Of a DNA stretch of 64,000 bases, positions 60,301 to 63,300 are shown one piece after another (positions within the stretch are counted from its first letter, which is position 1; every line of letters begins with the position of its first letter). Made by a program: the position numbers. Origin of the DNA: Escherichia coli (GTDB lineage: Bacteria > Pseudomonadota > Gammaproteobacteria > Enterobacterales > Enterobacteriaceae); assembly GCF_965641715.1 (NCBI RefSeq), contig NZ_OZ282453.1; one strand, written 5' to 3'.

Positions 60301-63300
60301 AAACAGGGTTTGATGGTGCTAAATTTACACTGATATTAACCCACAATATGAAAAACACGGATTATAATTGGACCAGTGGCATACAGGGTATTCAGGTCGA
60401 TAGTAATGGTATGGTGACTTTAGAATTCATTATCAATAAAGAGGTTACTATTACAGGAACGCCGAAAAGCAATAAAGGGAATAAAGTTACATATAAATTC
60501 TCACTGCAGAAATGGTTTATACCTCAAGGGATAATTCAGGAATCATGGAGTGAGATGAATTCATATTGTATTGGTAATGGTTATATATTACCGTCTAGTA
60601 CGGATTTAGTTGGAAGTTCAACTAGCGGTGCTGTCCCGCGAAAAGTAGGTTCGTTATGGGGTGAATATGGTAATCTGACTTCGTATGACGGAATATTTCG
60701 CGCTGAACATTATTGGCTCGACAGCGGTATGATATTTTATCCAGGAGATGGTCATCTCTCGATTGCGCCACGTTCATCCCCACTGTGTATGAAAACGTTC
60801 TGATATTATTTATGTTATTGCCCTGCATCAGCAGGGCAATTTATCTTCGCTCTTACGCAGAACTCCGCATCACACCAATAGTATTAAATTCATTTTTCAC
60901 ACTGAGCAAACGGGGGTCATGAAGCAACACATTTGACCATAAATCACTCTCTTTAATTAATTGTTGCCAGCGCTTTTCATATTCTTTTTTACCATAAACA
61001 GTGTAAATTAACGGCAAAATAACACCATTGATTTTGTTGGTGTTAATATTTGCCAGTAACTTCATAATGTCATTTTTTATAGATGCGCCATAGATCAGAA
61101 ACTTCGTATAAAGCGAGTTAACGCAGGTGTAATCAAGACCATGTTCAGGTTCAAGTTTAAGCAATAAACTTTTGGCTTTGTCATTATGTCCTTTCAGTGC
61201 CATGAACATAGCCAGAATAGATGTAATAATTGGATTGTTACAGGTGTTTTGACTGTTAAGATTTAATGCAAAAGATATCGCGTTATCGAGTGGTGATGTA
61301 TAATAAAGTATAATTAATTTAAGAATGCTTATGCCCATTTTATTGGGTTCAAGAGCAATGCTTTTTTCTATTAAATTAAATGCTCTTGCAAGGTCGCCGT
61401 TCAAAAAATATAGCAGCGACTGATAATAATAAACGTCTGGCGAATTAGGTTTGAGTAAATGTGCTTGTTTAAATAGCACATTAGACACTGAATGTTCATC
61501 TTTTAGCCCACTGATTAAACCCAGTAAACCCAATGCCTGAGAATTTGAAGGGTTAATTTCCAGAGCCTTTTCAATGGAGGTTACTGCCGTAGTTATTGCT
61601 TGTTTTTGTTCACTGATTCCAAGGAGTGCTAATGATATATGGCATTCCGCCAGGCAACAGTAGGGCAAGGTATTTTGCGGTTGCGTACTCACACAATCTC
61701 TAAATATTACTAATGCTCGTTTCAAACTTTCTGGTGTATAACGGTACATTTCCATCCTGCCATTCATATACATAACAGCAGAATCCAGAGATGGCATTTG
61801 TTGTGTATTAATGGATTTAAAATTAATGTTGGGTATTTTTTCAATAAGAATATTAATTACTTGTGATAATAGCACGGAAAGAGGATTGTCGGGGTTGAAA
61901 TCAATACTTTGATGATCAATCAATTTATGCGTTCTGGCATGGATTAATTCAATAAATAAACGCCAGTTTTTACCATAGTGAACGACCTGACCCATAATAT
62001 AATATTCTGGGCCTGTTTTATTGATAAACTGATGGATAGTGGAGAAATCACTGGCTTCATTCGTTACCGAAGCGGGTAAAATATCTAAACCACAAAAAGC
62101 ATATTTTGAAAGGCCCTGGACCAGTTCGTAATGGAGTTTTAGAACATTGATCGAACCTTCAGTACGAAAGGGAAAAACGGCAAGAGTGGTGGTCGACTTT
62201 ACCGGTTCATTATCGGTTACAATCACAATGGGGACAGTAAAACGGTATCCACGACCATAGACCGTTTCGATATACTTACACTGTTTATTCTCATGCAAAA
62301 GTTTACGTAATGCATAAATACACCGTGTTAAAGATTCATCGCTGGCAACACTCGCGCTCCAGACCTTATCGATAATCTCTTCTTTACTAACAATTTCACC
62401 GTCAGCATTAAGTAATAGAATGATAACGCCAAGTTCTTTCGGGGGAATATGATATTCTTTGTTTTTGAATAATAATATTCCATTGTTTTTTAATACAAAG
62501 TCACCAAATATATATTGTTGTGTATTATTTTTTCCATGTTGCAGTTGCATAGAACGCTCCTTCCATTTTCTCTATTCATAGTATTAATTTGATCTGTCTA
62601 AAATAAAGTATTGGCAGAATTGCTCTATCAAAAAACGCTCATTTTGTGAGATTGTGATGAAGAAATGAATGAAAGCTGATGCTTAATAATATGAAACACT
62701 GGTCCCATTTTACGGGACCAGATAGTGGACGATAATTGTAGGTGTTACTTAATCAGAAACGTAAATAATCTTTCGCTGAATCAAACAACGCAGTAATGGT
62801 TGAAGATAATAATTTTATAATTGTATCGTAGGTGGAGTTGGCTGTACTGTATTTAGTCGTTATAACCTGCACGTCGGTTTTCATGTTTTCTGCCTGGCCA
62901 TTATAACCCGCCAACCATGCCTGGTATTCAGCCGTGCTTATTTCGTAGCCGGTGAATTCTTTAGATATATTTTTTTCCTTCCCTTTATCATCCCTGTGAA
63001 CCATTGAGTCTGAAGACTGGCTCATACTGTCAATAATCTGAGGGTTGGGAATAATAACATACAGACCGCTACCTTGCGGTTCAACTTCGACTATAGGAGA
63101 AGGTGTGCGGTGTTTTGGGTCGGGTGGAATAACCGGAAGTCCTAAAGCGGCGCACCATTTTTCTGCTTCTTCCAGTGGAACACCAATTTTGTCAGCAGGT
63201 GCCGGAGGGTATAAAACATAGTCTGGATTGTAATGATAATGAAAATCACCATTAGGATATTTATCGATATAATAAAAATGCATCAAGGCTTTTTGGAATG

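Follow-up and report, generated by a model that had tools for sequence, protein, structure and literature searches.

A HilA-family regulator gene, eilA, in the eip (selC-B) island of Escherichia coli and a candidate InvF/MxiE-type box in its promoter region

The closest described relatives of the gene considered here, eilA in a 64,000-nucleotide stretch of Escherichia coli contig NZ_OZ282453.1 (hereafter the window, meaning the whole stretch analysed), are EilA of enteroaggregative E. coli (EAEC) 042, YgeH of the second type III secretion system of E. coli (ETT2) and HilA of Salmonella enterica. In strain 042, EilA is reported to modulate eicA, eipB, eipC, eipD and the adhesin gene (Sheikh et al. 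2006, Mol Microbiol 61:338, as summarized in PMC4210603 and PMC7058095). The same summaries add eivF and eivA in the unlinked ETT2 locus to its targets, and describe less adherence and less biofilm in eilA and adhesin mutants of 042 (PMC4210603; PMC7058095). When a Salmonella hilA mutant is supplied with EilA or YgeH of 042, it regains secretion of SipA and transcription of invF (PMC4210603). YgeH resembles EilA in being a HilA-family protein with winged helix-turn-helix and tetratricopeptide repeat (TPR) parts and in complementing that mutant; it differs in its length of 458 amino acids and in being encoded within ETT2.

The open reading frame (ORF) at 60853..62550 of the window is eilA, the HilA-family transcriptional activator gene of the eip (selC-B) island.

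60853..62550, minus strand: eilA coding sequence, ATG-initiated, 565 amino acids, intact; from the ORF list, the NCBIfam NF009037 match and the identity with the 042 protein
62239..62460, minus strand: OmpR/ToxR-type winged-helix DNA-binding domain (residues 31-104); from Pfam Trans_reg_C and PDB matches
61162..61644, minus strand: TPR-like part of EilA (residues about 303-463); from Pfam, NCBIfam and PDB chain matches

The product scores 952.4 bits on the NCBIfam equivalog model NF009037, "HilA/EilA family virulence transcriptional regulator" (cut-off 589), and the match is full-length, with residues 1-552 aligned to profile positions 2-553 of 553. It is identical at 559 of 565 residues (98.9%) to EilA of EAEC 042 (UniProt D3H2F7), the six substitutions relative to 042 (N9T, I312L, Y381C, N503S, S534N and S563T) all being conservative, and its length of 565 amino acids is the published length of EilA (PMC4210603). 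The gene also shares its island and neighbours with 042 (eipD upstream, air convergent downstream, nepI and yicS at the borders), and the DNA of the eilA promoter region is about 94% identical in the two strains. Of 5426 complete E. coli genomes, 730 contain DNA matching eilA, the identity being 90-99.6%; the Prokaryotic Genome Annotation Pipeline (PGAP) names the gene eilA under every one among the matches listed, the 99.6%-identical DNA included, and on 197 contigs the exact protein bears the deposited name 'HilA family transcriptional regulator EilA'. Nothing was found that contradicts the identification. It is correct and it is not new: eilA already has a name and has been studied by experiment, and its island is known as well.

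A preliminary description of the locus, made from the sequence alone, had proposed a 565-residue regulator with an OmpR/ToxR-type winged helix and a long TPR-like region, of the kind found in HilA-type virulence regulators, and each of these features was recovered. Residues 31-104 match Pfam Trans_reg_C (OmpR/PhoB-type winged helix) with E=8e-16 in a hidden Markov model (HMM) search, and residues 31-111 match, among PDB sequences, the CadC DNA-binding domain 5ju7 (E=3e-10) and ToxR (7nmb and 8b4b). The TPR-like region is seen in weak Pfam matches (TPR_2 and ANAPC3) at residues about 310-425, in a match to the PrsT TPR model of NCBIfam over residues 316-463 (E=4e-10) and in consensus TPR proteins of the PDB, which match residues 313-424, individual chains covering 320-405. 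No Response_reg (receiver) domain was matched by Pfam, and no hydrophobic transmembrane stretch follows the winged helix in the EilA sequence. The HilA-type assignment is carried by the 952 bits on NF009037, with scores far under the cut-offs for YgeH and CadC. The name YgeH was rejected at 229 bits against a cut-off of 800 on NF008870, EilA being a paralogue of YgeH.

HilA of Salmonella, which was obtained via a SipC-anchored contig, is 37% identical to EilA over 544 amino acids without gaps; it was not among the best 120 in the homologue search with EilA. The two proteins share their architecture and NCBIfam equivalog family and are close in length (553 and 565 amino acids). They differ in genomic setting, eilA lying in a small satellite island of translocator genes and adhesin, apart from secretion-apparatus genes. 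[quoted passage not shown]

On either side of eilA lie a translocator gene and the adhesin gene.

62753..64000, minus strand: eipD, encoding a SipD/IpaD-family T3SS needle-tip protein; 3' 415 codons, frame open to the window end
50268..60803, plus strand: air / eaeX / iatC inverse-autotransporter adhesin, 3511 amino acids; from the NCBIfam IatC N-terminal model

The SPI-1-type (Salmonella pathogenicity island 1) T3SS gene eipD is directly upstream of eilA. Its product matches TIGR02553 SipD_IpaD_SspD with E=5e-39 and 134.8 bits, under the curated cut-off of 219 bits, and is identical at 400 of 415 positions to residues 35-449 of the 042 protein, the full length in other genomes being 449 amino acids. 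The adhesin scores 3023 bits on the IatC N-terminal model (cut-off 2400), and the exact protein has been deposited as IatC; over the first ~1140 residues it hardly differs from Air of 042, the divergence lying for the most part in the Big repeats. The names Air, EaeX and IatC serve as synonyms (PMC10562709).

The order yicS, eicA, eipB, eipC, eipD, eilA and convergent adhesin gene was found in 042, 2018-05-2CC, an O158:H23 strain and Escherichia albertii. The adhesin gene is followed by nepI in the three E. coli strains and, nepI being absent, directly by yicN in E. albertii. The window itself holds nepI, the adhesin gene and, convergent to it, eilA and eipD, with eipC, eipB, eicA and yicS lying beyond the window end as in other genomes. 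This block, bordered by the core genes nepI and yicS, has been published as the selC-B/eip island (PMC7058095; PMC2808357; PMC4210603). A horizontally acquired module of adhesin plus regulator had been suspected; its setting between core nepI and yicS and its limited occurrence, 730 genomes out of the 5426 complete ones of E. coli, bear this out, and the island is more than an adhesin plus regulator, namely a translocator, regulator and adhesin module tied to ETT2. The regulator is convergent to the adhesin in an A+T-rich block, as had been described (49-nt gap, 33-42% G+C). The span first given for it, 60804-62752, does contain the ORF, the remainder of that span being the 49-nt and 202-nt flanking spacers. 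The adjacent gene thought to be unknown does adjoin the regulator but is the known gene eipD, and its delimitation as a complete gene at 62753..63973 did not hold, since the frame is open to 64000. The expected link between regulator and adhesin is one that has been reported for strain 042, in accounts of Sheikh 2006 (PMC4210603; PMC7058095), and would apply here by analogy.

The 202-nt spacer between eipD and eilA carries several candidate regulatory elements.

62699..62721, minus strand: hairpin just past the eipD stop codon, 10-bp stem and 3-nt loop; from a terminator-like scan and folding
62625..62642, minus strand: 18-nt box ATGAGCGTTTTTTGATAG, 74 nt upstream of the eilA ATG, an exact match to ATGAGCGWWTTTTGATAG; candidate InvF/MxiE-type site
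62599..62606, minus strand: -10-like TTATTTTA, starting about 20 nt past the box; putative promoter element
62557..62564, minus strand: Shine-Dalgarno-like GGAAGGAG, 6 nt before the eilA ATG, kept in E. albertii

The hairpin at 62699-62721 has a folding energy of -16.3 kcal/mol (z=-3.2, none of 200 shuffles being equally stable) and its outer stem is kept in E. albertii; it is likely to be a terminator or attenuator between eipD and eilA. In an alignment of E. coli and E. albertii, the box, TTATTTTA and the Shine-Dalgarno sequence are conserved and the spacers between them diverge. The box is likewise conserved at eilA in 042, 2018-05-2CC and E. albertii (one mismatch), with diverging flanks. 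From this pattern we infer that eilA has its own promoter in the spacer, downstream of the terminator-like hairpin, and that this promoter consists of the box ATGAGCGTTTTTTGATAG followed about 20 nt later by the -10-like TTATTTTA.

The box was found by comparing the eipD-eilA spacer with the eicA upstream region of 042, which share a 20-nt block with 2 mismatches; the longest such block in 200 shuffles was 18 nt. Apart from the box, the upstream regions of eilA, eicA and air share only short matches of the level seen in shuffles. Its core, ATGAGCGWWTTTTGATAG, has three exact copies in the window, where 0.19 matches would be expected even with 3 mismatches allowed. The further copies are listed below, those outside the window with positions in their own loci.

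30327..30344, plus strand: second exact box copy of the window, 115 nt before ORF 30460..31956
28719..28736, plus strand: third exact box copy of the window, about 200 nt before ORF 28937/28949..30244
14724-14741 of locus L005 (ETT2 of EAEC 042): box before ygeF-ygeG
6160-6177 of locus L003 (042): box upstream of eicA
4554-4571 and 9909-9926 of locus L006: boxes of E. albertii
9900-9917 and 20611-20628 of locus L007: boxes of Yersinia enterocolitica
9891-9908 and 18811-18828 of locus L008: boxes of Escherichia fergusonii

A box precedes eicA in 042, 2018-05-2CC and E. albertii, and an exact copy stands 85 nt before the ygeF-ygeG chaperone operon in ETT2 of 042. Upstream of the eilA/hilA-like genes it stands at 74 nt in E. 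albertii, 83 nt in Y. enterocolitica and 92 nt in E. fergusonii. All copies are oriented toward the downstream gene, and a -10-like hexamer lies 20-26 nt after each. In the searched literature no mention of the box sequences was found, and the conserved box, together with the small regulon that it suggests, may be a new element.

Several other sequences of this kind were observed. The box also stands before a pentapeptide-repeat ORF in Yersinia and before a 202-residue ORF in E. fergusonii. A one-mismatch copy, ATGAGCTATTTTTGATAG, lies between a rhuM remnant and setC next to selC (locus L003, 2172-2189, minus strand; locus L001, 27054-27071, plus strand); it faces a fragment of a RhuM pseudogene, downstream of which no intact gene is obvious, and may be a relic. 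In Salmonella, a weak box-like sequence with three mismatches, GTTAGCGTATATTGATAG, occurs inside sicP, about 145 nt before sptP (locus L024, 15235-15252), and could be due to chance.

The described sequence that the box most resembles is the MxiE box of Shigella, GTATCGTTTTTTTANAG. This is a 17-bp element located 33 bp before the transcription start, in which G6, T10, T12 and A16 are essential (PMC3299695). It lies just upstream of the -35 position, and the -10 hexamer is about 21 nt after the box (PMC3299695). In a manual position-by-position comparison, the E. coli box TGAGCGTTTTTTGATAG matched 12 of the 16 specified positions of the MxiE box, all four essential ones included. Kept in the E. 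coli box are C5, G6, the T run, A14, A16 and G17, and the differences from the MxiE consensus fall at positions 1, 2, 4 and 13. The promoter geometry may also be alike, a -10-like hexamer standing at a similar distance after the E. coli box.

A second likeness was found at the sicA promoter of Salmonella, where the sequence TTGGGCGTTTTTTGAATG in the spaS-sicA spacer, 91 nt before sicA, is identical to the E. coli box at 14 of 18 positions; it takes the position equivalent to that of the box before eicA, the sicA homologue. A genome-contig scan with the sicA-promoter sequence GGGCGTTTTTTGAATGTT returned S. enterica subsp. arizonae and subsp. diarizonae, along with 12 chance matches in unrelated genomes. 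In the 21-kb stretch of SPI-1 from spaK to hilD, the sole close match to the box is the sicA promoter. That promoter depends on InvF and SicA, and the InvF site overlaps its -35 region (PMC7595419). InvF, MxiE and BsaN form one chaperone-dependent subgroup of AraC proteins (PMC10761746).

The genes that carry the box agree with such a relationship, as it occurs before eicA-eipBCD, before ygeF-ygeG and before the ORFs of the EspG/VirA-like family described below, that is, before translocator-chaperone operons and candidate effectors. Two places in which one might look for a HilA-type site gave no box: the ETT2 core of 042, searched at up to 3 mismatches and with the regions upstream of eprH and eivF included, and the 1.1-kb hilD-hilA spacer of Salmonella. 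Hence its distribution follows the InvF/MxiE pattern and not the HilA pattern (prgH, invF), since it is absent at eprH, at eivF and in the hilD-hilA spacer. From these likenesses the box would appear to correspond, in E. coli, to the MxiE box of Shigella and to the sicA-promoter sequence of Salmonella. The E. coli arrangement differs from both Shigella and Salmonella in that a box before a hilA-like regulator gene has not been reported there; compared with Salmonella hilA, eilA has an upstream region of 202 nt with the box in place of the 1.1-kb hilD-hilA region without it.

The other two copies in the window belong to an islet between ilvN and uhpA (28700-32000), which is 3.3 kb long, has a G+C content of 31-39% and holds two paralogous unannotated ORFs.

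30460..31956, plus strand: A+T-rich ORF, 498 amino acids from the first ATG and 477 from a 042-like start; candidate ETT2 effector with a possible EspG/VirA-like fold
28949..30244 (alternative start 28937), plus strand: paralogue of ORF 30460..31956, from BLASTP

The two ORFs are 27% identical over 361 amino acids (BLASTP, E=5e-25), and an exact copy of the box, ATGAGCGATTTTTGATAG, stands before either one. In 042 the counterpart of ORF 30460..31956 is annotated as a coding sequence of ~478 amino acids; at the position expected for ORF 28949..30244 only a coding sequence of 160 amino acids is annotated, its correspondence being presumed from position. The islet was found in 1109 of 5426 complete E. 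coli genomes, O157:H7 included, and the ORFs are annotated 'hypothetical' in all of them. Homologues are 44-95% identical to the query, and all named ones are from E. coli. Within the family, Arg246 and Gln348 are invariant. Neither ORF matched an NCBIfam, Pfam or PDB profile. The N-termini of both were observed to be rich in Ser, Thr, Asn and Pro, residues in which type III secretion signals are usually rich. The two ORFs would be candidates for fast-evolving effectors.

An AlphaFold model of ORF 30460..31956 was built from a 17-sequence alignment; it is of moderate confidence, with a pLDDT of 61, and good for residues 60-210. In a Foldseek search with this model, the first 21 matches were all EspG or VirA. 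Both structure search methods gave the EspG/VirA family, with low TM-scores of 0.22-0.38, and the model tentatively suggests an EspG/VirA-like fold for this ORF. The virA gene of Shigella is itself an MxiE-box gene (PMC3299695). In the searched literature no paper was found that deals with EspG, VirA and ETT2 together.

Identification of the regulator as eilA and of the block as the eip island, to which the promoter box and a feedback loop are attached as conjectural parts, is together the best explanation of the locus, and one in which we have high confidence. The loop is proposed because MxiE with IpgC and InvF with SicA are AraC-type activators that work only with free translocator chaperone. 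EivF with EicA or YgeG is most likely the activator at the box. EilA would switch on eivF in ETT2; with EicA or YgeG as its chaperone, EivF would then drive the box-bearing promoters, namely those of eicA-eipBCD, ygeF-ygeG, eilA and the two orphan EspG/VirA-like genes; and eilA would thereby be wired into a positive loop. An InvF/MxiE-class box at eilA and at the hilA-like promoters of E. albertii, E. fergusonii and Y. enterocolitica would thus put a HilA-type regulator below a secretion-activity sensor, with two EspG/VirA-like candidate effectors in the box regulon. Taken as a whole, this proposal is tentative, and its chances are put at somewhat under even. Salmonella hilA is under the control of HilD, HilC and RtsA, and to our knowledge such a positive feedback loop is not known for it.

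Several points weigh against the proposal. No box was found before the adhesin gene at up to 4 mismatches, so that EilA must reach the adhesin gene, the promoter region of which lacks the box, by another route. The sicA-promoter sequence is, from its position, presumably the InvF site. The window does not include ETT2 or eivF, which the loop involves. It was also reported that icaR and icaT, two MxiE-box genes, were not switched on by EivF plus YgeG of O157 (PMC9241512), which would mean either that the specificity differs or that the pair is inactive.

The alternative that survives best takes the box to be a binding site of HilA-family proteins (EilA or YgeH), which would activate eicA, ygeF and the orphan genes directly and provide for autoregulation of eilA. 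Direct repeats spaced by one helical turn are the usual binding sites of OmpR-family winged-helix proteins, and TGA...TGA occurs in the box at a distance of 11 nt; EilA is reported to control the eip genes (PMC4210603), and a box stands before every hilA-like gene examined outside Salmonella. These observations have to be set against the lack of a box, at 3 mismatches or fewer, before eprH (the prgH homologue) and eivF (the invF homologue) in ETT2 of 042, the promoters expected to depend on HilA or EilA from the Salmonella analogy and, for eivF, from Sheikh 2006 as it is summarized elsewhere. Moreover, EilA activates Salmonella invF (PMC4210603), yet the close match in the SPI-1 stretch is at the InvF-dependent sicA promoter only, and the MxiE box that the box resembles is an AraC-type site (PMC3299695). 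Direct binding of EilA or YgeH is considered unlikely, at about one chance in four.

It is less probable still that eilA in this strain is an intact-looking, functionally idle remnant, left behind as ETT2 eroded in most E. coli. Mutational attrition of ETT2 has indeed been described in most strains (PMC7058095; PMC4210603), eilA was reported not to be expressed in lysogeny broth (LB), unlike ygeH (PMC4210603), and ETT2 is not within the window. The ORF is nevertheless complete, and its product departs from the functional EilA of 042 by no more than 6 substitutions; the elements of its promoter are conserved, the eipD frame is open as far as visible, and the adhesin target gene is adjacent and intact. 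The eip island is also reported to accompany those ETT2 loci that are the most intact (PMC7058095). Finally, the idea that EilA is a membrane-anchored sensor-regulator of the CadC/ToxR type instead of a soluble HilA-type activator, prompted by the match of its winged helix to the CadC and ToxR DNA-binding domains, can be set aside as very improbable, as the CadC model reached 51 bits against a cut-off of 400 over residues 41-115 only and the remainder of the protein is colinear with HilA and TPR-like, with no transmembrane stretch after the winged helix.

The remaining features of the window concern the adhesin gene and more distant accessory regions. The adhesin gene and eilA are convergent, with 49 nt between the end of the former and the stop codon of the latter, and a hairpin occupies this gap.

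60817..60840, no strand assigned: G+C-rich hairpin between the adhesin gene and eilA; from the terminator-like scan and folding

Its folding energy is -17.9 kcal/mol on the plus strand and -18.7 kcal/mol on the minus strand (z=-3.9 and -4.5), and it is likely to be a bidirectional terminator. Over 60000-64000 the G+C content is 0.33-0.42, compared with 0.50-0.64 for the main part of the adhesin gene, and the low-G+C block starts at ~59500, already within the 3' end of that gene; the Big-repeat region was seen to have 58-64% G+C and the last ~1.3 kb of the gene 38-44%. At 3511 amino acids, the adhesin allele is longer than the range of 2459-2965 given for IatC (PMC6714894) and shorter than Air of 042 (3806 amino acids); together with the six substitutions in EilA, this sets the window apart from 042, and the difference in length lies in the number and sequence of the Big repeats. 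Upstream of the adhesin gene (50066-50267), two copies of TCATCATTT about 22 nt apart (GAATTCATCATTTG ... GAATCATCATTTTC) were noted, which are conserved in 042 and 2018-05-2CC; the repeat finder reported no direct-repeat family in the air upstream region, this pair included.

Between yicN and nepI (47987-48653), an ORF for a RelE/ParE-type toxin (119 amino acids) overlaps one for a helix-turn-helix antitoxin (107 amino acids), a pair that 042 and other strains carry too, under the same annotation. An accessory cluster at 37185-44102, between uhpT and adeD, where 042 has nothing, encodes a carbohydrate porin, a phosphotransferase system (PTS) IIA component, a GH1 glycosidase, PTS IIC and PTS IIB components and a LacI-family regulator; it is covered by only 2 of the best 12 matching genomes. 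In the closest annotated genome, that of the O158:H23 strain, the flanks of the cluster hold a second DUF1198 (yicN-like) gene and a fragment of YicS, and the DUF1198 ORF was confirmed in the ORF list of the window.

The eilA and air genes and the eip island are published and named by PGAP, and genomic work on E. coli routinely scores them as markers of virulence; the value of the present check is that the locus receives its right name and literature and that the "unknown" neighbour is corrected to eipD. The regulatory logic of ETT2 is poorly defined and its function obscure, and we know of no secreted effectors that have been demonstrated for it. If the proposed reading of the box as an InvF/MxiE-class site is true, the box would link eilA, two chaperone operons and two orphan EspG/VirA-like genes in a testable regulon and would provide candidate effectors for ETT2.

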